Of a stretch of 64,000 nt of DNA, positions 15,525 to 64,000 are shown piece after piece. The DNA is taken from positions 84,015-148,014 of the forward strand of contig JBNASH010000035.1 of assembly GCA_049720475.1 (NCBI GenBank). Reading direction: 5' to 3'. The notes under the pieces are model-generated. The model was not told where the DNA came from, did no database searches, and was given only the letters and a program-made list of their open reading frames with translations. Source of the stretch: Minisyncoccia bacterium (GTDB lineage Bacteria > Patescibacteriota > Minisyncoccia > UBA6257 > JAAZHW01). Made by a program: the position numbers and the translations under genes. The first letter of the stretch is position 1; each line of letters opens with the position of its first letter.

Positions 15525-16232
15525 TTATTCTATGGTTGGTTCTTCTAATTGTTCTAGCTCGGCTGTAATAGCCAATCCGACCCTTTCTTGTTTTTCAGGA
15601 TTATAAAAATTGTAATACAACTCAATTAATTCCGGGGTTTTAAGACGAATGGCATTCAACCCCATTGCTTTCAAAGCTGAAATAACAGCAGCCACCCGGT
15701 GGTATAGTTGCATTTTGTTATTAACAAATTGCGTCTCTTTATCAACTTCTTGTTGGGGAACGCTGCTCTTTTGTTTACCAAAAGGCAATGGCAACTTTTG
15801 AAAAATTTGTGTTAATGGATTAGCACTACTTGTTGCAGAAATAAGAGAAGGAGAATAAGGTACAACAACATAAAATCTCTTTGTCATAATATTAGTGCTT
15901 TTGACAAGCTCATCTATAAAATTGTAATATTCCTGAATCTGCAATTTTAGAAGCTCATTTTTTTCATTCTTTTCCAACTCTTTAATTTTGTTTAAATAAT
16001 TATCCAGATTAATTTTTCTAGAATGGACAAGGATTTGCAATGGAAAATCTAAAGAATTTAAAAGGCTTTGGTAGGCATTCAAAACTATCTCCTGCTCGGT
16101 TTCTGATAACAAATCAAAGTTAACACCCGACACCATCAAAACGGCTCTTAACGAACCATCTTTTAAAATAACGCAATCTTCTTTGATGGTTTCAATATCT
16201 ATAAATTTTTCAGTGGAGGCAGTACTAATCAT
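15525..16232 (-). CDS. probable N-terminal segment of the same VirB4-like ATPase, in the same frame and separated by one TAA stop + AAT from the downstream ATG
   Basis: Frame arithmetic: both ORF ends are congruent mod 3, with a 3-nt gap. The VILKDGSLRAVLMVSGVNFDLLSETEQEIVLNAYQSLLNSLDFPLQI pattern resembles VirB4/TraE N-termini. Combined length ~835 codons matches a full VirB4. Confidence 0.5.
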   Translation of the reverse strand: MISTASTEKFIDIETIKEDCVILKDGSLRAVLMVSGVNFDLLSETEQEIVLNAYQSLLNSLDFPLQILVHSRKINLDNYLNKIKELEKNEKNELLKLQIQEYYNFIDELVKSTNIMTKRFYVVVPYSPSLISATSSANPLTQIFQKLPLPFGKQKSSVPQQEVDKETQFVNNKMQLYHRVAAVISALKAMGLNAIRLKTPELIELYYNFYNPEKQERVGLAITAELEQLEEPTIE

Positions 16233-16636
16233 AATTGTTTATCTTTTTCTTCTAATTCTTTAGCAATTTTTTCCAATTCTTCGACCGTTAATCTTTTTTT
16301 CTCTTCTTGTTGAGAAACAACTTTTTTCGTTTCTTTTAATAAAGGTTTTGTTGCTTGGGGTTTTTTCCAAGTATATAAGCGCGGATTAATATAAAATTTT
16401 AAGGCATTAATCAAAACTTTGGAAAGGGGTTGTTCATTAACTTTCACAAACGCTAAAGCAATCGAAAATAAAGCAATGACAATACTAACTAAAATCCACA
16501 AACCCTGAGTGAGCACAGAATTCAAAATAAAAATCAAAACCCCGCCCCCTCCCAAAAATAAAAATTGACGAAGGGTTAATGGCCCAACAATTTTACTTTC
16601 TAAATTAATAAATTGTGGTACTTGAGTAGTAGGCAT
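16229..16636 (-). CDS. small two-TM membrane protein (VirB3/PrgI-like candidate)
   Basis: 135 aa. Two adjacent hydrophobic helices near the N-terminus. Immediately upstream of and overlapping (ATGA) the VirB4 N-terminal segment, the usual VirB3 position. Confidence 0.4.
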   Translation of the reverse strand: MPTTQVPQFINLESKIVGPLTLRQFLFLGGGGVLIFILNSVLTQGLWILVSIVIALFSIALAFVKVNEQPLSKVLINALKFYINPRLYTWKKPQATKPLLKETKKVVSQQEEKKRLTVEELEKIAKELEEKDKQL

Positions 16637-16646
16637 ATTTTAATTC

Positions 16647-17906
16647 CTAAAATTTTAACTTTCTTAAATCAATAACATTTTCCGCCGGAATATCTGCTGT
16701 TGTCTCATTTTTAGATTCAACTTTTTCTTCTTGTTTCGGTTCTTCATCTTTCGGTATGAAAGATTTATTTTCTGGAGAAGGCGTCTGTTTGGCTTGTATC
16801 TCTTCTTGTTTCGATTCTAACTTTTCTTCTGGTGGGATTGGGGTTGTTTCTTTCATTTCTGAAGAAACAGCTTCTTTTGGTAGGAACGCTTCAACAATGG
16901 GGATTGGATTGACATCTTGAGGTGTTTGAAACGTTGAAGGCTCTATTTTTTGCTCTGTTATTGGTGGCGGTGGAGCAATTGGCTCACTTGATAATTTAAT
17001 ATCTGGTTCTTGTTTCTTTTCAACAAATTCTCTTTGTTCAAAAATTGGTTTTTCTATAGTACTAATCGGCTTGATTTCTTCTTCATGCTTTAATTCAATT
17101 TCTGAAACCACTTTTTCTTTCGCGGGTTTTACATCTTCAAAGCTAATCCGCCAAGGGGAAGATTCTTCCAAAACTGGTTTAAATTCCTCTTCTTTGCCAA
17201 TAATCATTGGCTCTGTTGGTTTTTGAGTCTCTTGTGTGGGTTTTTTAAATTTGAAAAACGAAAGAAAAGTTCGCTTTGGTTTTTCTTCTTGTTGAGTTGT
17301 TGAGGTTGATTCTTGGATCGGAGGTTGAACAACAGCATCTAATGGCTTGGGTTCTTCTTTTTTGCTAGTCTCTGATAATGGTTGAATTCCGATATTTAAT
17401 GTGCCAAGTGGTTCTTTTTGAGTTTCAATATTTTCTGGTGTTTTAGCTATTGATTCTTCTGTTTCGGCTATTTCCACTTTTTTTAATTCCGGCTGGCTTT
17501 CTTTTTCTAATTTTTCCATTGCTGAAAAACGATGATAAATTTTTTCTAAATCTTCTTTAAAAGGCGAGATGAATTTAGATTCTATTTTTAAAGCAATCTC
17601 CTTCGCCAATACCGGATGAATACCCAAATCTATTAATTTTCCACTTAAAAAAGCAAGGAAAACACTAGGATTTAATTTACCAATAAAAACATCGTGGGTT
17701 GCTCCGACCATCGCATCAAATTGATCATCGTTTAAATTATTTTGTCTTTCCAACTCTAAAAAATAGTCAGCCAATTCATTGCCTAAAAGTATTTTTTGAA
17801 TTTTATCAGGCAACTTATCTAATCTTTGCTGCATTTCTTCTAATTCATTATCCATCTCTTTGCTTTCGTTATTAGAATTTTTTACTGGAATATTTGTATC
17901 ATTCAT
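16647..17906 (-). CDS. acidic, E/K/P-rich low-complexity (probably disordered) protein
   Basis: Composition read directly; no TM segment. Confidence 0.5.
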   Translation of the reverse strand: MNDTNIPVKNSNNESKEMDNELEEMQQRLDKLPDKIQKILLGNELADYFLELERQNNLNDDQFDAMVGATHDVFIGKLNPSVFLAFLSGKLIDLGIHPVLAKEIALKIESKFISPFKEDLEKIYHRFSAMEKLEKESQPELKKVEIAETEESIAKTPENIETQKEPLGTLNIGIQPLSETSKKEEPKPLDAVVQPPIQESTSTTQQEEKPKRTFLSFFKFKKPTQETQKPTEPMIIGKEEEFKPVLEESSPWRISFEDVKPAKEKVVSEIELKHEEEIKPISTIEKPIFEQREFVEKKQEPDIKLSSEPIAPPPPITEQKIEPSTFQTPQDVNPIPIVEAFLPKEAVSSEMKETTPIPPEEKLESKQEEIQAKQTPSPENKSFIPKDEEPKQEEKVESKNETTADIPAENVIDLRKLKF

Positions 17907-17929
17907 ATTTTTATTTTTATTTGTTCTTT

Positions 17930-19843
17930 TTATGTTATTGGCTTTCCACTCGAACTAACCAAAGTTGGTCCTTCTAAATTTTTCTTAAACCACATTCGAC
18001 CATTAAAACCACTTTTTATTTTCTTTCTAAATTCTTTTTTGGTCTCCTCATCCATTGTTTCATAGGCGCGTTTAATTTCTGAAGTTAATTGGTCTAATTT
18101 AGGTAAATCAAGATTTCTCAGCTCGCTCGCTGCCTGTTCAGGATTTGTTTCAAGCTTTAATTGTATAACGCCCGAAAGAACAATAGGATCTTTAATTTTA
18201 TCCAGTTTGATACTCTCAACTTCTATATCGGCTTTTCTAATAGCTTTAATCACTTCCTCGGACTTACCAGTTTTAACCGCTGATTGAACATCAGGATGCC
18301 ACTCGGGATGATCTTTAATGATTTTCTTATAATCTTCTTTACTATATTTGCTTAACAAAGGCAAGGCTTTATCTTTATTCGAATCATCAATCCCGCCTTT
18401 TTTAGCTAAAACAGCAAACATCGCCGCTCTTTCTTCAGGTATTAAAGCAGAATTGGCCATTTGTTTTAACTGCTCTACACTCACATTTTCATATTTCTTT
18501 ACTCTATTACTCCATTCCTTATTCTTAACCTCCTCGGCTTTGCGAGAAACATAACGACTAGCCATACCCAAACCGGTAAGACTAATAGCCGCTCTTGCTA
18601 ATTCATTCTTACTAGCCGCCTTCTCTAAACCAGTTGCTGGAACATTGGCCGCTCTTAACGCCCATAAGGAAGCCTTTCCTTTAACAGCTCCTGATGCTTT
18701 CCTTCCTGTTTCTTTGGCAAAATCCAAAGTCTTCTTAGCTATTTCTACACCCATTTTTTCTCCAGCTATTAATCCCGCCACAATAAATCCTGCCACTAAA
18801 AACATCTGCATTACGCTCTGTAAATTGTACATTACAGAACTCATACCACCCGCTGTGAGTGTCCCTGGAATATGCAATTGCTTAACATGCGAAGCTGTTT
18901 CAAGAGCCAAATAAACGAAAAATCCCATTACTGGTGCTACAAAACACCACTGCAAAAATTTACTCCACCATTGTTTGGATATACCAGCCGGTGTGCCAGG
19001 AATTGAAATTAATGATATTACCCAGGCCAGCGGTGCAAAAATTAATAAAATCCATAACCAGAAAAGACGCACAAACAAAATACCAACCAAAGCACCAAAA
19101 ATTATAATGACTAAAAAGCTAAAAACAATTGTGAAGGCTAACTTTGCTATACCCATCAGAGCAGTTTTCTCTTCCGCCCCTACCATTTGCGCTTGTATCC
19201 ATGATGTCCATTCCGCCTCAGTCGAACTAGCTGTTGGCGTAGCAACAACCTGACTTTGCATAAATGTTTGCAACGTCAAAGCATCGGCTAAAGCATTGGT
19301 AAATCTTACCCCGCCCAATCCAGTAGGATCTGCCCCTAGGGAGCCAAAAATAAAATATCTGAAAAACATATTTGAAAAATCAATAATAGCCCCGCCTATC
19401 ATTAAACTAAAATTAATCAAAATTGCCATAATAATCATTTTGACTAACAATCCTTTTGTTTGTCTTGATTGCACTCTTAAAATATAAGAAAAGGCGATAT
19501 AAATTAAAATTACGATAAACAAAATATTTGCAAAATCACGAGCAATTCTCCAACCAGTTTGAACTACAGGCAGAGTAGTAAATGCCGAAGCATTAACTAC
19601 TAAAGCCAAAATTTTTGCTTCTAAAATAATAATTTGGGAAGCAAGAAGAGCAATAAGATGGGCTACCCAACTAAAAATAGAATAGATTGCTGTTGAGGTA
19701 AAATCACCAATACTAAAAAGAGAGAAAGCGTGTGTTTTGAAAATTATGAAAAGATTAATAAACAAACCAAAAATCAACCCTTGAATTAAAGAGATTTTTC
19801 TAAATTTTATTTTTTGAATGATGCTTTTTATTCTTTTAAACAT
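17930..19843 (-). CDS. VirB6/TrbL-like polytopic inner-membrane protein with a hydrophilic C-terminal extension
   Basis: At least 7 hydrophobic helices in the N-terminal ~370 aa, then a ~260-aa charged C-terminal domain, the VirB6-family architecture. Located in the T4SS-like cluster. Confidence 0.5.
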   Translation of the reverse strand: MFKRIKSIIQKIKFRKISLIQGLIFGLFINLFIIFKTHAFSLFSIGDFTSTAIYSIFSWVAHLIALLASQIIILEAKILALVVNASAFTTLPVVQTGWRIARDFANILFIVILIYIAFSYILRVQSRQTKGLLVKMIIMAILINFSLMIGGAIIDFSNMFFRYFIFGSLGADPTGLGGVRFTNALADALTLQTFMQSQVVATPTASSTEAEWTSWIQAQMVGAEEKTALMGIAKLAFTIVFSFLVIIIFGALVGILFVRLFWLWILLIFAPLAWVISLISIPGTPAGISKQWWSKFLQWCFVAPVMGFFVYLALETASHVKQLHIPGTLTAGGMSSVMYNLQSVMQMFLVAGFIVAGLIAGEKMGVEIAKKTLDFAKETGRKASGAVKGKASLWALRAANVPATGLEKAASKNELARAAISLTGLGMASRYVSRKAEEVKNKEWSNRVKKYENVSVEQLKQMANSALIPEERAAMFAVLAKKGGIDDSNKDKALPLLSKYSKEDYKKIIKDHPEWHPDVQSAVKTGKSEEVIKAIRKADIEVESIKLDKIKDPIVLSGVIQLKLETNPEQAASELRNLDLPKLDQLTSEIKRAYETMDEETKKEFRKKIKSGFNGRMWFKKNLEGPTLVSSSGKPIT

Positions 19844-19855
19844 AACCGGTTAATT

Positions 19856-21412
19856 TTAGTATTGTGGTGGTGGTGATGGCTCTCTGCCACCACAATATTT
19901 TTGGCAACTTGTTAAACTAGTAAAATCACCATTAGGATCTAATTCACAAAGTCCCTCAACTTCGTTACAACTATAGCGGTTTTCAGATGGTGGAGGTGAA
20001 GGTGTAATCGAAGGATAACAAACTCGACTACATGAATCATAATCACTATAACTGCCATTGGGATCAGCTACACAAATTTGCAATTCTGTATCGCATTTAA
20101 AACGAAGCGTGGATCCAGTACAAACTGCTTCACAGCTTTCTTTAGAAAAATATGGTCCATTAGCATCAATTTCGCAAACTTTTGATCCGCCATAAGTTTT
20201 ACAGGCATACCGCAAATTAAGCGATGGGCCAGAATCACCCTTTTCTGGCAAAGCCAACAATCCCTTACCATACCACTTACCACCAATTAACAATTCCTTA
20301 GCTGATTTTAACAAACGACTTATTAGTGCCTGAGCAATCATTTCTGAATAACCCTTAAGATCAGCTGAAGTTAGAAAATATGAGTCTGATTTCTCTAATT
20401 GATTGGTTAAAACTTTTGAAGTTAAATCTGATTTGGCTTCGCCCGGAATACTCACTACCTTTTCTACACAGATTTCTTGACCGGTAGCAGGATCTTTTTT
20501 GGTTTTAATACACCACTCTGTTGGTTTATAGCCACTCTGGGTTTTTTTCTCGGCTTCTTGCTGGGATTCAGATAATTCATTCTTTAAAGATTCTTGAGTC
20601 ATTAAATATGCTCCGAAGGCATTATTCCAGGGATAAAAGGATTCTTCAAAAGCAAGCCACCCGCCATTAGAAAAATTATCATAAAAAGATTCGATATTGC
20701 TTACTACCCTTGATAAAGTACAAGTTGGAAAAGGAGGTTTACCAGGCAAGGTTGTCCCAACTCTAACTAAATAACGAAACGGCTCGCACAACTCCGAAAA
20801 AGGTGAATTTTCGATAAATCGACCAAAAGCCTCATCCATCACATCGCCGAAAAATTGTCGCCAATTAGTAACAAACTGTGGATCGCCAGTTGTTCTTCCG
20901 CTAATCCAATCAACTGCGTTAGAAACCAAACGATCCATAAATGTTTTCACGGCAATTCTGAGCAATAATTTTGTCATTTCAGCCATTTTTGCTTTTAATG
21001 TTGCTTTCTTTTTAGCTACCCATTCTTTACACTGCTGGGTAGTATCGGCGCCACCAGTATTAATAATACATTCACCCGAAATAGCCGTCCCACCAATGCC
21101 CAAAAAACTCAACGTACGACCTAACATTTGACAAACTGGATTTAAAACTACGGACAAAGCGGTATTAATCCAGCTTGTTATTTTTTGATAAATACCCGTA
21201 GAACAAACCATCACCTCGCCCCAATATTCGGCTATATTCTCATATACCGCTGGCTCCTGTTCCAAAACCGAATCTAGATCTTTTGGCGAGGGCAAAGGAA
21301 CTTCGATTAAGGTTTCTGTTTGGGCTTTAACTTTTAAAGCATTAACTATGCCTTCCAAATTAAGAAGAAGAACAGCAATTAAAGTGATAATGGCAAAAGT
21401 TTTTTTACTCAT
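19856..21412 (-). CDS. secreted protein with three C-terminal Cys-rich ~30-aa repeats (C-x7-9-C-E/A/L-x-D-x-N-G-x-[YF]-x-[SD]-x3-S-C-x3-C) and a PPP tail
   Basis: Signal peptide MSKKTFAIITLIAVLLLNLEG. The repeats CKTYGGSKVCEIDANGPYFSKESCEAVC, CDTELQICVADPNGSYSDYDSCSRVC and CNEVEGLCELDPNGDFTSLTSCQKYC are read directly. Confidence 0.55.
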   Translation of the reverse strand: MSKKTFAIITLIAVLLLNLEGIVNALKVKAQTETLIEVPLPSPKDLDSVLEQEPAVYENIAEYWGEVMVCSTGIYQKITSWINTALSVVLNPVCQMLGRTLSFLGIGGTAISGECIINTGGADTTQQCKEWVAKKKATLKAKMAEMTKLLLRIAVKTFMDRLVSNAVDWISGRTTGDPQFVTNWRQFFGDVMDEAFGRFIENSPFSELCEPFRYLVRVGTTLPGKPPFPTCTLSRVVSNIESFYDNFSNGGWLAFEESFYPWNNAFGAYLMTQESLKNELSESQQEAEKKTQSGYKPTEWCIKTKKDPATGQEICVEKVVSIPGEAKSDLTSKVLTNQLEKSDSYFLTSADLKGYSEMIAQALISRLLKSAKELLIGGKWYGKGLLALPEKGDSGPSLNLRYACKTYGGSKVCEIDANGPYFSKESCEAVCTGSTLRFKCDTELQICVADPNGSYSDYDSCSRVCYPSITPSPPPSENRYSCNEVEGLCELDPNGDFTSLTSCQKYCGGREPSPPPQY

Positions 21413-22234
21413 TTAAAATTTGAAATAATTAATTGAACCATCGCCCTCCATTTTTTTCATCATGGCCACCATCCATTGTTGATAAGCATTATCCAAATCC
21501 TCTAAAAGTTGACTAGCTACCAAACCGCTTATTGGATCTTTTTGATAATTATAAAGCGCTTTTAAAATTGCTTGCTTTGTGTTTAAAAAATTAATCAAAT
21601 CCAGATGTAAATTAGCATAAGATGAAGGAATGGGTAACTTCTTTAAATCATCAATGGCTAAACTTAAATCATTAATCATATCAACCAAAAAAGTCGGATC
21701 TTCATTGTCCAAAAAACTTTGCAACCTTTCCTGAAAAACATCATCGGTTATCTTATGATCAGCCAATACTTTCATTGCTTCTACAAAATATTTTAAAGAA
21801 GTGAAAGGTGGCTCTTCTTGAGAAATAAATTTTAATTCAGCCAAAGTTGTAACTGGTACATTCTCAAGAAAATAATTAGTACATTTCTTTATCATTTCAT
21901 CACTAAACAATTCTTCATTCGGCACTTCTAACTGGCCGGATGATAAATCATTGTTGGCATTTAAAGAAATAATTTGTTGGGCTAATTCATTGGCCACTTT
22001 TGATGTTAAATTATCTTCTTCTTTAACATCCAGGCTTTCAACATTAGCTGATAATTTTTGCTTTGCTTTTTCTAAAGAAAAAGAAGTAGGCGCATTAATT
22101 TTTCCTGTATCAGTCAATGCGGCTTTACTTTCTTTTATATTTACTGGTTTATTGTTATGTTGAAAAATCAAAAACGAAACAAAAATAGCCAAAAAAACGA
22201 TGCCAATACCCAATTTTAGAGATTTTTTTTCCAT
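21413..22234 (-). CDS. membrane-anchored/secreted hypothetical protein (first gene of the cluster)
   Basis: N-terminal hydrophobic segment LGIGIVFLAIFVSFLIF. Confidence 0.5.
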   Translation of the reverse strand: MEKKSLKLGIGIVFLAIFVSFLIFQHNNKPVNIKESKAALTDTGKINAPTSFSLEKAKQKLSANVESLDVKEEDNLTSKVANELAQQIISLNANNDLSSGQLEVPNEELFSDEMIKKCTNYFLENVPVTTLAELKFISQEEPPFTSLKYFVEAMKVLADHKITDDVFQERLQSFLDNEDPTFLVDMINDLSLAIDDLKKLPIPSSYANLHLDLINFLNTKQAILKALYNYQKDPISGLVASQLLEDLDNAYQQWMVAMMKKMEGDGSINYFKF

Positions 22235-33354: not shown

Positions 33355-33359
33355 AGCAG

Positions 33360-33432
33360 TGCGCCTGGCGCGAATCGAACGCGCAGTCTTCGGCTCCGGA
33401 GGCCGACGCTTTATCCGTTAAGCTACAGGCGC
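33360..33432 (-). tRNA. tRNA-Arg (anticodon CCG)
   Basis: Hand-folded: acceptor GCGCCTG/CAGGCGC, anticodon stem TCGGC/GCCGA, loop CTCCGGA, T-loop TTCGATT. Confidence 0.85.
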
Positions 33433-36177: not shown

Positions 36178-36334
36178 GAGGGGTCTTTAAGTGGTTAATT
36201 AGCTAGAAATAAAAATCTGGAAAGTTAAAGTGTATAAAATGGCCATTTATAAAAATATACAAAATCTGAGTCTTTTTTACAAGTTTGACTCTGCCAAGCA
36301 TCAAATTCAAAAAATAAATTTAATCATTTATCAG

Positions 36335-36407
36335 TGGGCGCAGATGGATTCGAACCATCGACCCCAGACTTATAAGGTCTGTGCTCTAACCGCTGAGCTA
36401 TGCGCCC
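36335..36407 (-). tRNA. tRNA-Ile with anticodon UAU (AUA-decoding)
   Basis: Hand-folded: acceptor GGGCGCA/TGCGCCC, D-arm GCTC-AGCGGTTA-GAGC, anticodon stem CAGAC/GTCTG, loop CTTATAA (34-36 = TAT), T-arm GATGG-TTCGAAT-CCATC. The body resembles tRNA-Ile. Confidence 0.8.
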
Positions 36408-39355: not shown

Positions 39356-42300
39356 TTATTCGCTTTCTTTTTTATAAACCACCAGATTTAAATCATTGTC
39401 ATTCTTCAATTGCCAACCATTTCCATTCGGCAAATAAATTTTTGAACCCATAATATCCGGATGTACTTTGTAATTAACTGAACAATTAGCAGTATTTGTA
39501 TCAACCTCAGAAAAATCAAGCTTTAAAGCATAATAATGATTTTTCTCCAAATAAACCGGTTGATCAAAGCGCCAACTTAATATACCAAAATAACCATCCC
39601 AACTATAAGTAATTGCTGGGTCAATCGAATTACCTAACAATGGCCCCAGATTTCCATTAACTTGATTGGGTGAAATGGCATAGATCTGCGCTTTGATTGG
39701 AAAAGCGCAATAATGATAGTATGCTGGCAATTCTATTCTATCAACATAACCGCTCTTATTGGCAATAAAACTGGAAAAAATAACTCGCGGACCATACATT
39801 GTTGAAGCCCATTCAACGGCATTTGTCTCAATAACATTTTTTGGATCTAAAGAATACAAAACATTTTCAGGGTAATCACTTTGCTCGGCATCAACATAAA
39901 AATCAGAATTATTCTTATCACCAAAATAATACCACTCAGAAGTATAACCTGCTAAATCAATTGCCCGCGCTCGCCAGTGATAAGCATTGTCTTCTAAATT
40001 AGAAACTAAAACGGTAGCAACATCACCTGAATAAACAAAATTACTTTCAAAAAGATGGGGATCATTTTGAGCAATATTATTATCAAAATCTTCATTTCGC
40101 GGTCTCACTTCAATCTGCAATTTCACCGGCCAATCAGTATAATTAAAAACTCTGGCCGAAAAACTTACCTCAGGATTATAAATCGTCTCACCTTCTAATA
40201 AATCGTCTCCAGTTACTTTCTGAGATAATTCAGCAATTCTATTTTTATATCCCGTAAAAGAAAAAATTGTTTTATCACTTCCCCAAACTTCCCTGCTTTC
40301 TCCTGGGAAATAAGCCCAACAATTTCCATTAGGCGCATTATCAATATAAAATTGCGCTAAATATTGATGGTTTTTTCTTAAAACAATTGCCCCATCTACA
40401 AATTCCCAGCTGAAATAACCTGGTGTCCAATAAGATTTTAACTCAACCGCATTGCGAGAAACCCCTAATTCTTTTTGGTTATCATTTTCCATTTCAAAAA
40501 TTTTAACTTTAACTGACAAAGCACAGTTGAGACTTTTAGCCGCCGCCACCACATTTTTTAAGTATCCGCTTTCATCGGCCGTAAAAATTATTGAAAAGTT
40601 ACCTAGTCCATAATTATTTGCTAATTGAAAATCGGAATAATCTGACGAATTAGTAAATAAATAAAAATTAACTGGCTCAGAAATAACAATTTCTTTGGGT
40701 TGAACAATTTTAATAATAGCTGGCTTTTCTTTTTTCATTCCATCTTTATCTTTTAACACAATACCGACATAATATTCTTCAGCCGAATAAGGATTAAGAG
40801 TGATCTCAAAATTATTATTTTGGAAATCAAAATTTTTATTTAGAATCTCGGCTTTGGTTATATTAGAAACACTAAAATTTTTTAAATCTTCCTCAAGCAA
40901 ACTATAATAAACTTCCAAATCAGAAAAAGTTAGTAATTGTTCTGCTGGCAAAATAGAAAATGATAAGCGAATTTGACCGGCATTATCAAATATATATTTT
41001 AAATTTGATACTTCCAAAGCCTGGCGTGGTTCCGGTAAACTTAATGAGTTTTGCGGTTGAGGATCGCGCACAATAAAATCAGTCATTGAATCGCTATCAT
41101 AACCATTGCCCATAAATTGATCCATACCAATTGTCATTGATTCAACCGTTGAATCTTCTTCTGCTTTTCTTTCTAAACTACTACCTTCTGGACAAGAATT
41201 TTTTGAATAACTAATTTCATCAATGATATTTTTTTCATTATCAATTAAAAAGATATGGTAACTATTATCGAGTGTTGGATTGGGCAATGAATATGATAAC
41301 CTTAAAATATCAGCTTGAACATTGTTGTAATTTAAAGCATCATAACTATTAAAACCAATTAGCAAAAATCCGTGGGCTTTAATAATATTTAAATCATTTT
41401 TGCCAATTTTCAGTAAGGAAGTAGTAGTGGTACTGTTATCTTTTGCTAATTGCAATGACCAATCAATTAAATTAATATCGATATCATTAGGGTTGTATAA
41501 TTCAATGAATTCTTTACCCACATCGGTACCTTTAGCATCATAAAGAATTTCTGAAATCAAAATTTTTGGTTTTTGCGGGTTGGGAGTAGTATCAGGAAGA
41601 GTTAGAACAACAGGGCTATTTTCTGATTTAGGTGTTCCCAAAATGCCATTATTTTCTTCACCAGAATAAGTATGCCAATTTAAATCATCGCCTCTTTCCA
41701 TTGATCTCTTTGTGATTTTATCACCAGCCGGCCAATTTCCGTTTTCATCAGTTTTTGCTTCATCAATTAAATTACAATTGGAATCAAAAAGTTTTAAAGA
41801 CTCGTTGGTATCATTAATTGAACCAGTAAAAATTAAATCAGCTGCAATATTTGGTACGGCTTCATCATTTGTTCTTTCTAAAAGCAACGGTTCATTTGGC
41901 GCTAAAATTTTTTCTGGAAAAATAATTTTGATCTGGCCATCTTGATCTAATAATTGCCAATTTTTTAAATTGATCGTTTCAGTGGAAATATTTTTTAATT
42001 CAATCCACTCGTCAGCAGAAGAATGAGAGGTGCCCATCCAAGCAATTTCATTAATAATAACCTTTGGATTGTCAGAAATAATTGTGGTTGAAGTAGCGCA
42101 ATAAACGATCGGTGTTGGCGTTGGAGTTGGTGCGGGCGTAGAAGAAGTAGAACCGCTATAATAAATTTCTGGCGTTGAAGAGGGTGTTGGAGTAATTAAG
42201 GGTGTCAGATTAGTGGAGGGGGTGGGCGAAAAACTAGGAAGTGGAGAAGGGGTTAAAAATGGCGTTGAAGAAGGAGTTGGCGATGGCGAAAGTGTTGGTG

Positions 42301-43558
42301 TCAAACTCGGACTAGGACTAAAAATTATTTCTTGAGATAATTCTAACAACGGCGTGGCGGAAGGCAAAATAGAAACCTCATGAGATTGTTCAATTGTTTG
42401 GGATTGATTAATTGCTAAAGGCAAAGCTGATGGTGTTGATTCAATGGCAACTTCTTGTTTTTTCTCTTCGTCCATTAAACCCAGCGCTCTTTTAATATTT
42501 TCAATTGTTGTGGCGATTAAAGTTTTTCTCATTCGTGATAAAAAGTTTTGATCATTTTTATATTTTTCCACCTCTTGAAAAAATAAATTCAAAACACCAG
42601 CTCCTGATAAAACTGCTTTTTTAGATAGGTGAGACCAATAATCAGAATAAATAAGTGGATCGTCAATGGTAATATTTTGTGACAATGCTAAAAAAACACT
42701 GCCGGCTCCTGCTTTTTTAACTAAAAAATATTTACCCATATCATCTTCGTTAATTGAATACCAATAAATTTCCTTCTTTTCAACTTCTAAATAATTCCAC
42801 TCGGGCTGTTTATAGCCACTCTGAACACCAATCGTATCCTGACTATAAAAATGCGTATTAGTATAGAAAGCTAAATCATTAAAATAATCATTTAAATTAT
42901 TAAATACCAAGGGTTTTTTATTTTTTAATTGAGAAGCGACATCAATATTTTCTGGTGTAAATTGCGCCGCATATTTTTCATAACCATCACCAGTTAAATG
43001 ATGATCATTTCTAGTATGAGCTGGCACAGCCATATCTTCCAAAAGATGCAAAACATGGCCCAAATCAATAAAAGCTTCTTTTTTATTGCCAAGAATATAA
43101 TTATAAACGGCCTTTTCCCAAGTATGAACGGCTAAAATATCAACAGCACTTTTAGTTAATTGAGCAACAGGATTAAGCGCAGCATTACGATAAGCTTCTC
43201 CTAAAAAAGTTGCCTGAGCATAAGAATTCTGAGCCCAATCTTTAGCGGTTAAAATAAGGGGTTTTAAAATAGTTAAAAATGGTGTTAAAGCACCTGCATT
43301 AATCTCTCCAGATAATCCCCTTTGATAAATTGGATCATAAAAATGATTCAAAGTTCTCGCCAATGGATCATCTTCTTTAATGCTTCCCTCTATTAACCAT
43401 TGTTTTTCTTGTTCATTAATGCGAAATTGGGCGAAGTTATTGTAAAATTTAACAATTTCTGAAGTTAAAGCGGGGTGAGTTGTTAAATTATCGTAAGCCA
43501 ATAATTTAAAAGGCAAAATTAATAAAAATAAAATAATCAAAAATCTCTTTTTAAACAT
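39356..43558 (-). CDS. 1400-aa secreted protein: N-terminal zinc-dependent phospholipase C/P1-nuclease-like domain, Pro/Thr/Ser linker, two lamin-tail-domain-like modules, large C-terminal beta-rich region
   Basis: Signal peptide MFKKRFLIILFLLILPFKLLA. Motifs resembling zinc PLC (LNHFYDP; AQATFLGEAY; GHVLHLLEDMAVPAHTRNDHH). A linker PSPSLTPTLSPSPTPSSTP.... LTD-like KVIINEIAWMG...ADEWIELKNIS and KILISEILYDAKGTDVGKEFIELYNPN. Confidence 0.65.
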   Translation of the reverse strand: MFKKRFLIILFLLILPFKLLAYDNLTTHPALTSEIVKFYNNFAQFRINEQEKQWLIEGSIKEDDPLARTLNHFYDPIYQRGLSGEINAGALTPFLTILKPLILTAKDWAQNSYAQATFLGEAYRNAALNPVAQLTKSAVDILAVHTWEKAVYNYILGNKKEAFIDLGHVLHLLEDMAVPAHTRNDHHLTGDGYEKYAAQFTPENIDVASQLKNKKPLVFNNLNDYFNDLAFYTNTHFYSQDTIGVQSGYKQPEWNYLEVEKKEIYWYSINEDDMGKYFLVKKAGAGSVFLALSQNITIDDPLIYSDYWSHLSKKAVLSGAGVLNLFFQEVEKYKNDQNFLSRMRKTLIATTIENIKRALGLMDEEKKQEVAIESTPSALPLAINQSQTIEQSHEVSILPSATPLLELSQEIIFSPSPSLTPTLSPSPTPSSTPFLTPSPLPSFSPTPSTNLTPLITPTPSSTPEIYYSGSTSSTPAPTPTPTPIVYCATSTTIISDNPKVIINEIAWMGTSHSSADEWIELKNISTETINLKNWQLLDQDGQIKIIFPEKILAPNEPLLLERTNDEAVPNIAADLIFTGSINDTNESLKLFDSNCNLIDEAKTDENGNWPAGDKITKRSMERGDDLNWHTYSGEENNGILGTPKSENSPVVLTLPDTTPNPQKPKILISEILYDAKGTDVGKEFIELYNPNDIDINLIDWSLQLAKDNSTTTTSLLKIGKNDLNIIKAHGFLLIGFNSYDALNYNNVQADILRLSYSLPNPTLDNSYHIFLIDNEKNIIDEISYSKNSCPEGSSLERKAEEDSTVESMTIGMDQFMGNGYDSDSMTDFIVRDPQPQNSLSLPEPRQALEVSNLKYIFDNAGQIRLSFSILPAEQLLTFSDLEVYYSLLEEDLKNFSVSNITKAEILNKNFDFQNNNFEITLNPYSAEEYYVGIVLKDKDGMKKEKPAIIKIVQPKEIVISEPVNFYLFTNSSDYSDFQLANNYGLGNFSIIFTADESGYLKNVVAAAKSLNCALSVKVKIFEMENDNQKELGVSRNAVELKSYWTPGYFSWEFVDGAIVLRKNHQYLAQFYIDNAPNGNCWAYFPGESREVWGSDKTIFSFTGYKNRIAELSQKVTGDDLLEGETIYNPEVSFSARVFNYTDWPVKLQIEVRPRNEDFDNNIAQNDPHLFESNFVYSGDVATVLVSNLEDNAYHWRARAIDLAGYTSEWYYFGDKNNSDFYVDAEQSDYPENVLYSLDPKNVIETNAVEWASTMYGPRVIFSSFIANKSGYVDRIELPAYYHYCAFPIKAQIYAISPNQVNGNLGPLLGNSIDPAITYSWDGYFGILSWRFDQPVYLEKNHYYALKLDFSEVDTNTANCSVNYKVHPDIMGSKIYLPNGNGWQLKNDNDLNLVVYKKESE

Positions 43559-61180: not shown

Positions 61181-61830
61181 AAAAGAAAAAAACAAAAGAA
61201 ATTGATATTCTCTCCGGCGCGCCATGGGTTTACAGCAAAAAAGTGCGCGAGCATTTTTTGCACCCCAAAAATTTTATGAAGTTCGGCGAGGAAGAAAAAT
61301 TTAAATATAATGCGGTAGGAATGATTGGCAGTCCGGCTTGCGGCGATGTAATGAAAATTTGGTTATGGATCGATCCTAAAACTGAAAAAATTAAAAAATG
61401 CCGCTGGCGCACCTTTGGCTGCGCTTCAGCCATTGCCTCAACTTCAGTTTTATCAGAGATGATAACTAGAAAAGGTGGAATGAAATTAGAAGACGCTCGA
61501 AAAATTACTCCCGATCAAATTATCAAAGAATTGGGTGGTTTGCCAGCAATTAAATATCACTGTTCTGTTTTGGGTGATAAAGCTTTGCGCGATGCTATTA
61601 ATGATTATTATCGCCGCACAAAACAATATGACAAAATCGAACCAGAAGGCAGCCGCATTATTGATAAAGTTTTAAAAATTACCGAACGCGACATCGAAAA
61701 AGCTGTTATTGAAGGCGCTAAAACATTGGAAGAAGTCCAAGAAAAAACTAAAGTTGGTTTTGGCGATCCTAGTTGTTTGCCATTAGTTGAGGAATTAATT
61801 CGTTTTTATCGCGAAAAATATAATTTATAG
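61174..61830 (+). CDS. NifU/IscU-type Fe-S scaffold with a ~80-aa C-terminal extension
   Basis: GSPACGDVM, FGCASAIAS and HCS motifs of the U-type scaffold. Confidence 0.75.
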   Translation: MVKKKKTKEIDILSGAPWVYSKKVREHFLHPKNFMKFGEEEKFKYNAVGMIGSPACGDVMKIWLWIDPKTEKIKKCRWRTFGCASAIASTSVLSEMITRKGGMKLEDARKITPDQIIKELGGLPAIKYHCSVLGDKALRDAINDYYRRTKQYDKIEPEGSRIIDKVLKITERDIEKAVIEGAKTLEEVQEKTKVGFGDPSCLPLVEELIRFYREKYNL

Positions 61831-61844
61831 GTCGCTTAATTTTT

Positions 61845-62045
61845 TTGATTATGAAAAAAGTTAAAATTAACAAAGAAAAATGTCTTGGTTGCGGTTCTTG
61901 CACTTTTATTTATCCAGAAATGTTTTATTTGGATGATGATGGAAAAGCCAATGTTAAAGAAATAAAAAAAATTAATGAAGAAAAATTACAATCAGCGGTT
62001 GAATCATGCCCGGTTGAAGCCATTGAAATTGAGGAGAAAAAATAA
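61845..62045 (+). CDS. small [4Fe-4S] ferredoxin
   Basis: CLGCGSC...(x)n...CP, a single-cluster ferredoxin pattern; 66 aa. Confidence 0.7.
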   Translation: MIMKKVKINKEKCLGCGSCTFIYPEMFYLDDDGKANVKEIKKINEEKLQSAVESCPVEAIEIEEKK

Positions 62046-62067
62046 TTTAAATTTTTTTGAAAAATAA

Positions 62068-62110
62068 AAAGCCCCTCGACCTTTTAGTCTCGGGGCTTGT
62101 GTTTTTTTCA
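62068..62110. terminator. bidirectional terminator (GCCCC..GGGGC hairpin flanked by T-runs on both strands)
   Basis: Read directly. Separates the AT-rich fdx gene from the GC-richer minus-strand gene. Confidence 0.5.
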
Positions 62111-63532
62111 AAACCTAAGGAGGATTCCCCCTTGGATTCGCCAAGGGGAAATTTCAAGAGGAAGAATATTCGTGTTCGTGTTGCTGAGCAGCCGGCGGCC
62201 CTGAACAAAAAGAGGACCGAGCTCCAAGGAAAGCCCTATGTAAGGGCATGTTGAAGTGGTCCTAAATTTTTCAACCACTTCAACACAATTCTCCTTGGTT
62301 AAAGCCTCCTCTTTGAACGGATACAACTTTGTGTAAGTTGTATCCGTGATCCTGGTTCCCCTGTGGACCCTCCACAAGATTCCACCCTCCGGATCAATAT
62401 TCAAATTCTTCCCCAACTGCAGCTGGTATTTAATCCCAGCTGTGAACTCTTGAATCCGGACATTCTCCCGGATCAAGAGCTCGTTCCAATCTCGATGGAG
62501 TCCCACATAATAAACATATGTGGGAGGACAAGTGGTAGTCGAACTACTGCCATATTCCCCCAACAGCCTCATTTCATCAATTACCATACTCTCTTTCCCT
62601 TCATATTGGGAAAAAGAGTATTTTCCCACTTGGAAATAAGATCCACCAATGAACAGGTTTTTCCATATCTCTAATTCTACCTCCACATAGAAGGGAAAAT
62701 TTTTTCCCTTCTGAAAATTCACGACATTATGCTGCCAGAGTAAAACACTCTGGCCGAGTGCAAAAGGCACGCCATTACTCTGCGTATAGTACCACATGGC
62801 GGTCCCGTCTTCGCAATAGAAGACGGAATCACCTTGAGGAACAAGAGAAAAGAAGTCAAAGCGCTCAGTGGAATAATCAACGGAGTCTGGCAATTTCATC
62901 CCTGCCCAACCGGCCCCCACTTTAATTTTTACCGTGGGAGACCACGTCTTTACTGTCGGAACTGGCTTCGGCGTTAAAACCGGCTGAGGTTGAGGTTGAG
63001 GAGCTGGCGGCTGAACTGGAGGAATTATTACCGGTTGCTCTTTTTGTTCTTTCTTCTCTTCAGCAACTGGTTTCACCGGCGCTTCTCTCATTTCGAGAAG
63101 CGCGATATTACCGCACCGAACAGGAATAATGAAGGTAAATTCCTTCCCTTCCACTTCCAACTTGAACTGGTACGCCTGGAAGGACTCTATTCCTGCCCAG
63201 CGCAAACCTTTAAGCAATCTCCCTTTTGAATACATCATCCAAAACATTTTCTGACCTGGCTGAACTTCAACCAGATCAAGCCGTAACTGATCGAGCTGCT
63301 CATAGAGAGCAGCATAGGTCGCTTCCCCCAAGGCGCCGCCGGGGAAGTAATCCAGGGCCCTACCTACCTCTTCATTCACCTTTTTCAAGAGGTTCTTCAC
63401 CTCTTGGGGTGATTGAAGATAGGGGCTCAACGGGGCCCTTCCTAACTGTCTTAATTCCAACTCCTGTCCAACTGCCGCTGTCACCAGCGACAGCACCAGA
63501 CAAAAAACCAAAAAAATTCCTCGTTTTTTCAT
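62108..63532 (-). CDS. secreted protein with Pro-rich linker and C-terminal beta-rich domain ending ...GGILLRF (outer-membrane beta-barrel-like C-terminal signature); compositionally foreign
   Basis: Signal peptide MKKRGIFLVFCLVLSLVTAAVGQ. A PVIIPPVQPPAPQPQPQPVLTPKPVP linker. Alternating hydrophobic C-terminus with terminal Phe. Codon usage (CTG, CCG, GAG, CTC) and G+C visibly higher than the rest of the window. Strong SD AAGGAGG 7 nt before the ATG. Confidence 0.6.
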   Translation of the reverse strand: MKKRGIFLVFCLVLSLVTAAVGQELELRQLGRAPLSPYLQSPQEVKNLLKKVNEEVGRALDYFPGGALGEATYAALYEQLDQLRLDLVEVQPGQKMFWMMYSKGRLLKGLRWAGIESFQAYQFKLEVEGKEFTFIIPVRCGNIALLEMREAPVKPVAEEKKEQKEQPVIIPPVQPPAPQPQPQPVLTPKPVPTVKTWSPTVKIKVGAGWAGMKLPDSVDYSTERFDFFSLVPQGDSVFYCEDGTAMWYYTQSNGVPFALGQSVLLWQHNVVNFQKGKNFPFYVEVELEIWKNLFIGGSYFQVGKYSFSQYEGKESMVIDEMRLLGEYGSSSTTTCPPTYVYYVGLHRDWNELLIRENVRIQEFTAGIKYQLQLGKNLNIDPEGGILWRVHRGTRITDTTYTKLYPFKEEALTKENCVEVVEKFRTTSTCPYIGLSLELGPLFVQGRRLLSNTNTNILPLEISPWRIQGGILLRF

Positions 63533-63579
63533 CTAAAACCTCCTTAAAAATTTTTTTTATCCTTTTAAAGGACTGCCTA

Positions 63580-63608
63580 AATTCTACTTACTTTTATGAT
63601 TTTGTCAA
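63580..63608 (-). promoter_or_regulatory. near-consensus sigma70 promoter TTGACA-17-TAGAAT driving the high-GC gene
   Basis: Read on the minus strand, ~45 nt upstream of the ATG. Confidence 0.5.
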
Positions 63609-63617
63609 GAAAAAGAA

Positions 63618-63648
63618 AGGCGGGCGAAGCTTTGCTTCGCCCGCCCCA
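63618..63648 (-). terminator. intrinsic terminator for the kamA-like gene (GGCGGGCGAAGC-aaag-GCTTCGCCCGCC + T-rich)
   Basis: Perfect 12-bp GC-rich stem. Confidence 0.6.
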
Positions 63649-63661
63649 TTTCCCTCGCTTT

Positions 63662-64000
63662 TTATATCACCTTATGCCTCTTTCCCAAAAAATCTTTGAA
63701 CGTTTTTTTATTAAACTCCCAAAATTCCAAAGGAACAGGAATTTTACCGCTGCCATTCGGCGTATCAATCACATAAGTCGGCCAAGCCAATCCCGATAAA
63801 TTTTTTCTTAACTTCGTTGCGATTTTAATTTCTTTTTCAAATGGCACACGAAAATGTTCAATGCCTTTCACCGGATCGCAACGATAAAGATAATAAGGTT
63901 TAACTCCAATCTCAATTAAACGCGAAAACAATTCATACAAAACTTCATAAGAATCATTAACGCCTTTTAAAAAAACACTTTGACTATACAAAATTGCTCC
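63662..64000 (-). CDS. lysine 2,3-aminomutase / EpmB-like radical-SAM protein, C-terminal part only (gene continues beyond the window edge)
   Basis: GVKPYYLYRCDPVKGIEHFRVP...GLAWPTYVIDTPNGSGKIPV matches the conserved KamA/EpmB C-terminal region. Confidence 0.7.
   Translation of the reverse strand, partial: GAILYSQSVFLKGVNDSYEVLYELFSRLIEIGVKPYYLYRCDPVKGIEHFRVPFEKEIKIATKLRKNLSGLAWPTYVIDTPNGSGKIPVPLEFWEFNKKTFKDFLGKRHKVI

Follow-up and report, generated by a model that had tools for sequence, protein, structure and literature searches.

Why does a Paceibacteria (CPR) bacterium carry a gene that looks foreign in composition and encodes a protein built like the outer-membrane β-barrel proteins (OMPs) of diderms? 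CPR bacteria are reported to lack an outer membrane (PMC6744442; 10.1101/2021.05.31.446380) together with its machinery and markers (PMC6744442; 10.1101/2025.01.22.634366), so there is no known place in the cell for such a barrel and no known insertase. Within the 64-kb stretch of DNA analyzed here (the window), we saw no outer-membrane biogenesis genes. The original prediction suggested that the segment is a recent horizontal acquisition from a diderm or an assembly chimera. Here, we compare the composition, expression signals, protein architecture, genomic context and nucleic-acid folding of the gene, whose features are collected in Table 1.

Table 1. Features of the gene and its flanks (window coordinates)
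Feature	Coordinates	Strand	Description
CDS, 474 aa	62108..63532	(-)	From the ORF list; GC and GC3 outlier of the window
Sec-type signal peptide	63467..63532	(-)	Residues 1-22, MKKRGIFLVFCLVLSLVTAAVG followed by QE; from sequence and alignment, putative cleavage site
N-terminal domain	63077..63466	(-)	Residues 23-152; three helices, then a six-stranded sheet; RCGN motif invariant
Disordered linker	62945..63076	(-)	Residues 153-196; rich in Pro/Gln/Lys/Glu; length and sequence vary
C-terminal β domain	62111..62944	(-)	Residues 197-474; predicted OmpA-like barrel with long hairpin extensions, ending ...SPWRIQGGILLRF
Mosaic tract	62700..63244	(-)	Gene nt 289-833; from comparison with the closest relative, L021
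Sigma-70-type promoter	63581..63608	(-)	-35 TTGACA 63608-63603, 16-nt spacer, -10 TAGAAT 63586-63581
Putative 5' UTR	63533..63574	(-)	Contains the Shine-Dalgarno sequence; predicted transcription start
Intrinsic terminator of upstream radical-SAM gene	63617..63647	(-)	14-bp GC-rich stem, then a T run
Bidirectional intrinsic terminator	62069..62098	both	GCCCC..GAC/GTC..GGGGC, internal 2x2 loop, T runs on both strands
In-CDS hairpin (helix 25)	62124..62152	(-)	Gene nt 1381-1409; 12 bp, loop 5; over codons S-P-W-R-I-Q-G-G; best-supported conserved helix
In-CDS hairpin (helix 14)	62586..62621	(-)	Gene nt 912-947; 14 bp, loop 8; over a predicted β-hairpin turn, residues 309-311
In-CDS hairpin (helix 21)	62317..62347	(-)	Gene nt 1186-1216; perfect, 13 bp, loop 5; over codons T-D-T-T-Y-T-K-L-Y-P
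Three adjacent in-CDS hairpins (helices 17, 18, 19)	62420..62525	(-)	Gene nt 1008-1032, 1051-1089, 1091-1113

The compositional anomaly is genuine. GC content is 0.463 in the segment 62068-63660 and 0.470 in the ORF, compared to 0.337 in the remainder of the window, which places the segment ~5.5 sd from the 1593-nt sliding windows found elsewhere (mean 0.337, sd 0.022, maximum 0.389). At third codon positions, the ORF has a GC content (GC3) of 0.503 versus 0.263±0.027 (maximum 0.32) in the 58 other ORFs, a distance of ~8.8 sd. A quantitative check of composition had been named beforehand as a possible refutation; the segment passed it as a true outlier with unusual codons, which is how a recently acquired genomic island would look. 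The enriched codons are CTG, CTC, CCG, GAG, CAG, AAG, GGG, AGG and CGG, some of which, such as AGG, CGG, GGG and CTC, are rare in this genome. Two ordinary causes can be set aside. Amino-acid composition accounts for just ~0.05 of the 0.13 excess: encoded with background codon usage, the same protein would have a predicted GC of 0.387, and ~0.08 of the GC excess is codon choice. General expression-linked codon bias was judged insufficient because rare codons (AGG, CGG, GGG) are among those enriched, and because ribosomal protein L20, the pilin genes and the small ORFs bearing a Shine-Dalgarno sequence have ordinary GC3 and an ordinary folding z-score.

The expression signals around the gene suggest a monocistronic unit bounded by two terminators. 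GC-rich terminator hairpins had been proposed on both flanks, and their folding energies agree: the hairpin at 63617-63647, with which the GC-rich unit begins on its 5' side, has a folding energy of -28.9 kcal/mol (z -5.2), and that at 62069-62098, common to the convergent ferredoxin gene, at -18.7/-18.1 kcal/mol (z -4.6/-4.1). An equivalent of the former is found in orthologous loci, where the latter is also kept. The promoter is near-consensus, as predicted, matching sigma-70 at 11 of 12 positions, with a measured spacer one nucleotide shorter than the 17 nt first given. Upstream of the orthologues, including those of 35-40% identity, the pattern TTGACAaaa...TA(g/t)AAT followed by (G)GCAG is kept, and elsewhere in the window TTGACAAAATCAT...TAnAAT occurs at one site only, ahead of tRNA-His. 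The gene would be driven by this near-consensus promoter, of a kind otherwise seen in the window only before a tRNA gene, and its translation would start from one of the genome's rare Shine-Dalgarno sites, TAAGGAGG at 63546-63539, 6 nt ahead of the ATG. A Shine-Dalgarno match of at least 6 nt is found in 5 of the 58 ORFs of the window, and the site is as atypical for this genome as had been claimed. These signals point to high expression. A small 6-bp stem-loop near the presumed mRNA 5' end was considered as a 5'-terminal stabilizer and rejected, as it is weak, not significant and not conserved.

The sequence, the family alignment and the AF2 model all agree with the protein layout first described, a signal peptide, an N-terminal domain, a P/Q-rich linker and a β-rich C-terminal domain ending ILLRF. 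An equivalent of the signal peptide, of the Sec type that OMPs carry, is present in all full-length family members, and no conserved lipobox is seen in it, either in the sequence or in the family alignment. The linker has a pLDDT <50 at residues 155-195 and is gap-rich in the alignment. The model has a pLDDT of 81 overall and 85-95 in the C-domain, where the prediction is a closed antiparallel β-barrel superposable on solved OMPs; the best 50 Foldseek matches are exclusively outer-membrane barrels, with OmpA at a TMt of 0.52-0.58. The protein ends W-R-I-Q-G-G-I-L-L-R-F. Of 28 family members, 21 end in F and 7 in I; Q467 and G468 do not vary, and a hydrophobic-x-hydrophobic-x-F/I motif is kept, giving a β-signal-like C-terminus whose conserved Gly sits one position off the published β-signal consensus. 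In the strands of the C-domain, one face is hydrophobic and variable and the other consists of conserved polar residues or glycine, a pattern that resembles lipid-facing strands. Hydrophobic columns vary more than polar ones (1.41 vs 1.14 bits), and near-invariant columns make up 5/60 of the hydrophobic and 29/102 of the polar strand positions, an asymmetry of marginal significance (p ~0.1); the N-domain shows the opposite.

Family profiles, in turn, are silent. No curated OMP family matches above threshold: the best Pfam entry, DUF6268, lies below the cut-off (E 0.16/0.069), NCBIfam returns nothing, and a PDB sequence search gives only chance nanobody matches. None of the three provides a family for the protein or its N-domain, which has neither a Pfam family nor a solved structural relative; PF13505 matches weakly, and only in relatives P0037 and P0035. 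The OMP-type reading is supported by the conserved C-terminal motif and by the architecture common to the relatives. A second candidate OMP-like gene in the window, ORF 21413-22234 (ending YFKF), was rejected, as its composition looks non-barrel. Alternatively, the C-domain could resemble the 8-stranded barrels of lipocalins, YceI, hemophilin or TbpB, being soluble or attached to the wall, without embedding in a membrane, and binding a hydrophobic or host-derived ligand, for instance to scavenge lipids that CPR cannot make. We find this reading doubtful.

We compared the protein with two kinds of known envelope proteins. The closest in fold are the OmpA-like 8-stranded outer-membrane β-barrels, such as the E. 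coli OmpA transmembrane domain, P. aeruginosa OprF-N, Thermus thermophilus TtoA, NspA and PagL. Unlike these, the protein has no sequence-profile match to any OMP family, its domain order is reversed (soluble domain N-terminal, barrel C-terminal), its soluble domain is not the OmpA_C peptidoglycan-binding domain, and neither an outer membrane nor BAM is reported for its host lineage. The overall plan, in which a wall-side domain at the N-terminus is joined through an extended linker to a barrel at the C-terminus, resembles the OmpM/SlpA-type tethers of Terrabacteria diderms, which consist of an N-terminal SLH domain, a stalk and a barrel and are abundant envelope proteins in lineages near CPR (10.1101/2021.05.31.446380; PMC10628300). 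The protein is not a member of this type: an SLH domain is absent by Pfam, a coiled-coil stalk is absent, the linker being disordered and Pro-rich, not helical, and the barrel is small and OmpA-like, not a 16- to 30-stranded porin. Both porins and SLH domains have been reported lost in the Chloroflexi/CPR/Dormibacteraeota clade (10.1101/2021.05.31.446380).

The protein has relatives in an unnamed superfamily characterized by a signal peptide, the N-domain, a Pro-rich hinge, in some cases with PKD/Ig domains, and a small barrel at the C-terminus that ends GxGLRFxF. A family-profile HMM search yielded 382 matches at E<=1e-3 (144 at E<=1e-10), most of which share the N-domain only and end ...GR[FY]GxG[LF]R[FL]xF. 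The N-domain is homologous (E 1e-10 to 1e-22 versus the family profile), with the pattern LG..P... WM.Y ... W.G ... F.F ... P..CGN.SL, and the architecture and the C-terminal aromatic residue are shared as well. Members were traced to two diderm MAGs, L015 5992-7446 (Aminicenantaceae) and L016 4-954 (Thermodesulfobacteriota), with tblastn E-values for the N-domain of 2e-12 and 5e-11. At ~280 aa, the Paceibacteria C-domain is twice as long as the 130-150 aa of the diderm-type relatives. Against 36 short-type (diderm-like) C-domains, hhalign gives a probability of 8% and an E of 0.0043, co-linear over the last 105 columns, a match too weak to establish that the two kinds of barrel are homologous. 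The diderm-type genes also lack both the GC3 excess and the hairpin excess of the Paceibacteria genes. No conserved neighborhood, and no functional hint, was found around the diderm-type relatives P0051 and P0070, and our literature searches returned no description of the family or of barrel proteins in Paceibacteria.

Did the gene, then, arrive recently as an island from a diderm donor whose composition it mirrors, or is it an artifact of chimeric assembly? The strong GC and GC3 outliers, the enrichment of genome-rare codons (AGG, CGG, GGG, CTC), the diderm-type architecture and the distant relatives in diderm MAGs speak for a foreign origin. The context of the locus speaks against it. The same slot (radical-SAM / gene / ferredoxin-NifU-IscS-Rrf2) is found in more than 10 independent Paceibacteria assemblies from JGI, ENA, Logan and NCBI, being occupied in L001-L012, L017, L018 and L021, with deeply diverged orthologues whose protein identity falls as low as 26%. 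The protein diverges in step with its neighbors: it is 62% identical where LigA is 85% and GatA 90%, 46% at a LigA identity of 76% and a GatA identity of 75%, and 26-29% at an IscS identity of 65%. Four-fold sites match at just 0.22-0.33 in the distant pairs (L005, L007, L017, L018), which is near saturation, yet GC3 is high in every lineage, the gene being a GC3 outlier in all nine Paceibacteria loci tested (z 2.1-7.6), whereas the four loci examined from short N-domain (diderm-type) relatives have z between -0.8 and +0.3. The promoter, too, is kept across the family. We saw no mobility gene (integrase, transposase), no tRNA insertion site and no direct repeats at the flanks, where only low-complexity A/T repeats occur. 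We found no patchy presence, variable location or incongruent divergence: the slot is the same in all loci examined, and identity ranks parallel those of the neighbors.

The compositional anomaly is kept in the Paceibacteria orthologues and is absent from the diderm relatives. We regard a recent island or a chimera as extremely improbable. An ancient transfer into the ancestor of the clade may have taken place, but would not explain the present composition. On this comparative sequence evidence, the gene most likely belongs to the core of a Paceibacteria (CPR) clade and has been inherited vertically, not imported recently.

Vertical descent of the locus is accompanied by local exchange. The mosaic tract is only 79% identical to L021, whereas identity reaches 99.5-100% in the rest of the gene and across 817 nt of flanking sequence, suggesting that the surface-related middle of the gene recombines between strains. 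The tract contains substitutions of all types as well as linker indels, on which grounds mutagenesis by a DGR was rejected as its source.

What, then, maintains the composition? The full-length CDS folds at an MFE of -579 kcal/mol, compared to -453±10 kcal/mol in synonymous-codon shuffles (z about -12). Similar scores are seen in the orthologues L002 (-13.8), L007 (-13.3) and L017 (-8.2), with weak excess in others (L005 -2.2, L018 -1.2, L026 -0.6); controls score -1.0 and -1.4, the diderm relatives +0.5 and -1.7, and 37 other window genes average -0.57 (sd 1.15, minimum -2.8). The CDS holds 24 local helices. In a comparison of six sequences, 79% of helix cells are paired versus 40-48% with the partners slid, and pairs changed on both sides number 28 versus 10-14 when slid; none of 500 shuffles attains the value observed. 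In helix 25, 97% of cells are paired and three pairs have both sides changed, as where Ser TCC/TCT/TCA pairs with Gly GGG/GGA/GGT. Helix 14 has 87% of cells paired and four such pairs. Helix 21 (91% paired) tolerates a Leu-to-Trp change (TTG to TGG) in L002 that is offset by Thr ACA-to-ACC. In helices 17, 18 and 19, the paired share of cells is 83%, 93% and 100%, and both sides have changed in 3, 1 and 0 pairs, respectively. No Rfam family overlaps the region 61800-63800, where the best matches score 15-26 bits and the cut-offs lie at 45-175.

That bacterial coding regions are generally under selection for local secondary structure of the mRNA was reportedly described by Katz and Burge in 2003. 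The present gene resembles this general phenomenon, reviewed in PMC3575835 and PMC3763529, in that its CDS folds better than codon-shuffled controls and its structure is evolutionarily conserved. It differs in magnitude and specificity, with z about -9 to -14 in one gene family versus -0.6±1.1 for the 37 window genes, and in its near-perfect helices of 9-16 bp, one every 60-80 nt along the whole CDS. Synonymous sites may be tuned for the formation of some two dozen local hairpins of 7-16 bp in the transcript or in either strand of the DNA, and many of these are kept by compensatory synonymous changes. We infer that the hairpins act on the mRNA, stabilizing it and/or pacing translation of an export-dependent barrel protein. 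A DNA-level or mutational cause competes with such a sense-strand RNA role, since the antisense strand folds nearly as well (z -11.8) and G·U cells exceed A·C cells in the helices only modestly (98 vs 68).

Those same observations would fit a different origin, in which the hairpins and the high GC are by-products. Amphipathic β-strands would yield quasi-palindromic codon patterns, perfected by template-switching or gene conversion within the quasi-palindromes and/or by GC-biased gene conversion at a recombination hotspot. Besides the near-equal excess on the two strands and the small G·U surplus, the majority of stems consist entirely of Watson-Crick pairs, roughly half the loops fall on predicted β-turns, and the locus shows recombination. 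However, the excess is missing in diderm relatives, whose strands have the same chemistry, hairpins also occur in the signal peptide and in the helical part of the N-domain, and GC is equally high within and outside the recombined tract. Multiple independent compensatory pairs are present, and clades that are just 26-40% identical have helices over the same codons. L007, in turn, is AT-rich (GC 0.365) and just as structured (z -13 to -14), so GC enrichment alone is not the driver of structure. We consider a by-product origin rather unlikely. Most likely, the GC-rich composition is a maintained, gene-specific property that goes with conserved intragenic hairpins.

Taken as a whole, the gene would encode a vertically inherited, highly expressed envelope barrel protein with an unusually structured mRNA, an explanation that we think reasonably probable. 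Counting against it, ribosomal protein L20 and the pilins are presumably well expressed and show no GC3 or structure excess. We propose an abundant, Sec-exported envelope protein built like a diderm outer-membrane protein, whose signal peptide would be cleaved. The 130-aa N-terminal domain may stay near the wall or the cytoplasmic membrane as an anchor, the disordered Pro/Gln-rich hinge may span the wall, and the OmpA-like β-barrel with its β-signal-like C-terminus may sit in a hydrophobic outer layer or on the surface.

A secreted effector that inserts into a host-cell membrane, where it would serve nutrient uptake or attachment by forming a pore or an anchor, could also be built in this way, and the strain-level mosaicism would then mirror the host adaptation of an episymbiont. 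Small OmpA-like barrels, the fold predicted here, are able to insert into bilayers in vitro in the absence of BAM. Diversifying pressure is suggested by the mosaic middle of the gene, and its expression signals are strong. Paceibacteria are reported as attached parasites (PMC10936435). The hosts known from that study, however, are archaea, which have no outer membranes (PMC10936435), the N-domain and hinge are common to free-living diderms, where they are presumably periplasmic, and the neighbors of the gene are Fe-S cluster genes, with no secretion-system linkage. We regard the effector reading as quite improbable.

Several implications follow. For island detection, the locus is a caution: foreign-looking GC, codon usage and signals may mark an old resident gene under selection for nucleic-acid structure. 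Excess structure at z about -12, with synonymous-synonymous covariation, is an extreme case of synonymous-site use and a tractable model for intra-CDS mRNA hairpins, and the N-terminal domain defines a sizeable unannotated superfamily. The boldest form of our proposal, to which we give a low probability, is that at least this Paceibacteria clade keeps both a functional outer-membrane-type barrel and a CDS whose synonymous sites are devoted to an mRNA-controlling hairpin array. If true, the gene would be a so-far undescribed kind of coding sequence, in which dense conserved hairpins control mRNA life, and the barrel would imply either that a presumed monoderm has a cryptic, barrel-bearing outer layer, such as a toga or a vestigial outer membrane, or that the protein enters the membrane of another cell independently of BAM. 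CPR/Patescibacteria are regarded as monoderms, with porins and tethers lost; a conserved OMP-type protein is a molecule with which to probe their outer layer, and it bears on the course of the diderm-to-monoderm transition.

The minus strand of the GC-rich segment near the end of the window carries a 474-codon ORF (the target gene) whose protein has no match in any curated library searched. Among 5.8 billion proteins, 28 full-length relatives were recovered (~470 aa, 35-90% identity), several labelled Candidatus Paceibacterota, and all 28 consist of a signal peptide, a conserved ~130-aa domain (N-domain), a variable Pro/Gln-rich linker and a ~280-aa C-domain ending in hydrophobic-x-hydrophobic-x-F/I. 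In the AlphaFold2 model of the target (pLDDT 81) the C-domain lies mostly at 85-95 and the linker is disordered, and the top 50 Foldseek matches to this model are outer-membrane barrels only. The alignment and the AlphaFold2 model agree with the original prediction of a signal peptide, an N-terminal domain, a PQ-rich linker and a beta-rich C-domain. The predicted C-domain strands carry variable hydrophobic residues on one face and invariant Lys, Glu, Arg and Gly residues (K202, K204, G206, E286, E320, R322, R347, E362 and E437) on the other. Hydrophobic columns of the C-domain are less conserved than polar ones (1.41 vs 1.14 bits, of marginal significance only), and the N-domain shows the usual reverse (0.76 vs 1.03 bits); judged from the alignment, this asymmetry, marginal as its significance is, is what a barrel with a polar lumen and a lipid-facing exterior would be expected to show.

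Searching 1.84 billion representatives with a profile returned 382 matches, of which 11 are full-length and of Paceibacteria type, while the remainder, 250-500 aa long, have the N-domain alone in common with the target. These short-type relatives combine a signal peptide, the N-domain, a proline-rich hinge (with PKD/Ig domains in some) and a C-terminal region of ~130-150 aa terminating in ...GR[FY]GxG[LF]R[FL]xF, which reads as a textbook OMP beta-signal; two of them are encoded by GTDB genomes from the diderm lineages Aminicenantaceae and Thermodesulfobacteriota. In view of the common N-domain and the OMP-type architecture of these relatives, the target protein represents a divergent branch, with an enlarged barrel, of an OMP-type superfamily that has had no name so far, although homology of the two C-domains is not demonstrated (hhalign probability 8%). 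Neither the family nor its new N-domain is described in the libraries or literature searched.

The deviant composition reported originally holds up quantitatively: GC is 0.463 in the segment and 0.470 in the ORF vs 0.337 in the remaining window, placing the segment ~5.5 sd outside 1593-nt sliding windows elsewhere (mean 0.337, sd 0.022, maximum 0.389), and GC3 is 0.503 vs 0.263±0.027 (maximum 0.32) in the 58 other ORFs. Over-used codons generally end in G or C (GAG, CAG, AAG, CTG, CTC, GGG, AGG, CGG, TTC, TCC). Recoded with host preferences, the protein would give a GC of 0.387, so that amino-acid content accounts for ~0.05 of the excess and codon choice for ~0.08. The window also encodes tRNA-Ile(TAT) and tRNA-Arg(CCG), the latter reading CGG, a "rare" codon enriched in the target gene.

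The proposed source of this composition, recent horizontal acquisition or an assembly chimera, is contradicted by the recurrence of the gene in the same slot of independent assemblies, by identities that track those of its neighbours, and by the failure to find any mobility genes or flanking repeats at the locus. The Paceibacteria loci recovered come from JGI, ENA, Logan and NCBI assemblies, the longest contig reaching 242 kb, and all of them place the gene tail-to-tail with a ferredoxin-NifU-IscS-Rrf2 cluster, usually with DUF192 and radical-SAM genes upstream, and this order holds down to relatives of 26-29% protein identity. Target identity is 62% where LigA is at 85% and GatA at 90%, 46% where these are at 76% and 75%, and 26-29% against an IscS identity of 65%; this parallel fall marks the gene as vertically inherited, encoding an envelope protein that evolves fast. 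At conserved residues, four-fold sites agree between the window and four distant orthologous loci (L005, L007, L017, L018) in a fraction of only 0.22-0.33, and synonymous sites are therefore saturated; yet the gene is the GC3 outlier in 9/9 Paceibacteria loci tested (z 2.1-7.6), vs ordinary GC3 (z -0.8 to +0.3) for N-domain relatives in four diderm-type loci. The anomaly is thus maintained rather than inherited from a donor.

Alongside the anomaly, the coding sequence is densely packed with hairpins. Because repeat searches found perfect 12-13-bp inverted repeats inside it, we compared its folding energy with shuffles that permute synonymous codons and leave protein and codon counts unchanged: it folds at -579 kcal/mol vs -453±10 (z ~-12, 0/40). 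The same test gave z -1.4 and -1.0 for the neighbours IscS and GatA; 37 other window genes average z -0.57 (sd 1.15, minimum -2.8). Among orthologues, z was -13.8 (L002), -13.3 (L007, GC only 0.365), -8.2 (L017), -3.3 (L005) and -2.1 (L018), with +0.5 and -1.7 for two diderm relatives; a local 120-nt measure ranged from -0.6 to -14.3 among 18 orthologues. The structure comprises 24 helices of at least 7 bp (longest 16 bp), mostly short-loop hairpins spread along the entire gene, signal-peptide and helical regions included, with loops at predicted beta-turns in about half. Hairpin sites recur across deep clades at residues ~17, 94, 115, 147, 276, 382, 401 and 465. Within the window's subclade, an alignment of six sequences has 79% of cells paired, vs 40-48% after partners are shifted by 1-3 columns; 28 pairs have changed on both sides, vs 10-14 after the shift, and the observed value was reached in 0/500 shuffles. 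Some compensations join synonymous changes at Ser462 (TCC/TCT/TCA) and Gly (GGG/GGA/GGT) and at Pro (CCT/CCC) and Gln (CAA/CAG), and in one case a synonymous Thr change compensates for a replacement between Leu and Trp. The antisense strand is nearly as over-structured (z -11.8) and G·U cells only modestly outnumber A·C cells (98 vs 68), so the sense RNA is not proven to be the selected molecule; with these observations beside the covariation, we regard it as unlikely that the hairpins arose by mutation or biased conversion. Rfam families gave no match to the region, and no comparably extreme structured coding sequence is described in the libraries or literature searched.

The expression signals, too, match the original description apart from two minor corrections. 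The near-consensus sigma-70 promoter stands (TTGACA-TAGAAT, 11/12 positions), with a spacer of 16 nt rather than 17, as does the canonical Shine-Dalgarno TAAGGAGG, 6 rather than 7 nt upstream of the ATG and indeed atypical, since matches of at least 6 nt occur in only 5/58 window ORFs. The predicted boundary terminators are likewise present as stable hairpins with T runs at both ends, and orthologous loci keep both the bidirectional terminator and the promoter (TTGACAaaa ... TAgAAT ... GGCAG). TTGACAAAATCAT...TAnAAT recurs at one further window site only, upstream of tRNA-His, and this extended -35 motif may be the organism's strong-promoter consensus. In 46/58 window ORFs no Shine-Dalgarno is recognisable and leaders are A/T-rich; most genes of this genome therefore start translation without an SD.

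The closest relative (L021, from a different sequencing run) is 99.5-100% identical to the window in gene nt 1-288 and 834-1425 as well as in 817 nt of flanking sequence, but only 79% over nt 289-833, with indels in the linker and substitutions of all types. This mosaic indicates strain-level recombination in the stretch that runs from the second N-domain half through the hinge to the first barrel loops, behaviour that is common among exposed envelope proteins.

Coordinates of the target unit and of other features in the window and in two orthologous loci (L001, L002)
Feature	Sequence	Position	Strand	Remarks
GC-rich segment	window	62068-63660
Target ORF	window	62108-63532	-
Bidirectional terminator	window	62069-62098		internal 2x2 G·A/A·G mismatch (GCCCC-GA-GAC / GTC-GA-GGGGC) kept in several orthologous loci
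Mosaic tract	window	62700-63244
NiFe-hydrogenase small and large subunit genes, DUF6390 protein	window	1-1978; 2013-2681	+; -	sub-threshold HupF/HypC match in DUF6390 protein
tRNA-His	window	3308-3383 (region 3266-3383)	+	TTGACAAAATCAT...TAAAAT upstream, extended -35 motif as in target promoter
Five consecutive small ORFs (122-157 aa)	window	3478-5809	+	no Pfam matches; 3/5 with strong AAGGAGG-type SD, otherwise rare in genome; GC3 ordinary; just downstream of tRNA, may be accessory or mobile module
RNase Y	window	6007-7530
CPR-type type IV secretion cluster	window	10568-21412	-	pilin and ATPase genes amid large secreted or membrane ORFs that lack Pfam matches
T4SS pilin	window	11845-12483		cluster member
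VirB4/TraG-like ATPase	window	13722-15521		cluster member
tRNA-Arg(CCG)	window	33359-33432	-
tRNA-Ile(TAT)	window	36334-36407	-
1400-aa ORF	window	39356-43558	-	N-terminal signal or anchor MFKKRFLIILFLLILPFKLLA...; may be giant surface protein
Restriction-modification module (HTH, N6/N4 methyltransferase, HinfI-like endonuclease)	L001	4608-6584		inserted between the genes for the CCA-adding enzyme and Sua5; not present in L002; GC3 also raised (0.46) in one ORF of the locus
DGR-like set (FGE-sulfatase/C-type-lectin-fold target gene, bAvd, reverse transcriptase)	L002; L001	2028-5496; 1-821		~5-8 kb upstream of orthologue; equivalent region falls outside window

The gene forms a monocistronic unit whose expression signals are strong and conserved; its product has a Sec signal and an OMP-type architecture and fold, its inheritance is vertical, and its hairpin excess is conserved, with covariation. 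In these cells the product would rank among the most abundant proteins of the envelope. The N-domain would stay close to wall or membrane and the hinge would span the wall; the barrel, on the model of OmpA, OmpM and the Thermotoga toga, would lie in an outer layer, hydrophobic or proteinaceous, or help to form it. Most plausibly, the hairpins would shield an mRNA in heavy use against endonucleases (the window encodes RNase Y), and they may also set the pace at which a protein that needs export competence is translated. What chiefly stands against a membrane reading is the literature, which reports CPR to have neither an outer membrane nor its machinery (PMC6744442; 10.1101/2025.01.22.634366; 10.1101/2021.05.31.446380). 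We find a soluble ligand-binding barrel improbable, and a barrel delivered into a host membrane less probable still. The original observation was real and the protein correctly read, but the evolutionary explanation was wrong: a lineage supposed to be monoderm carries here an old and conserved envelope gene of OMP type, whose "foreign" composition belongs to an array of intragenic hairpins that is itself conserved and specific to this gene, a combination more unusual than the import first proposed.
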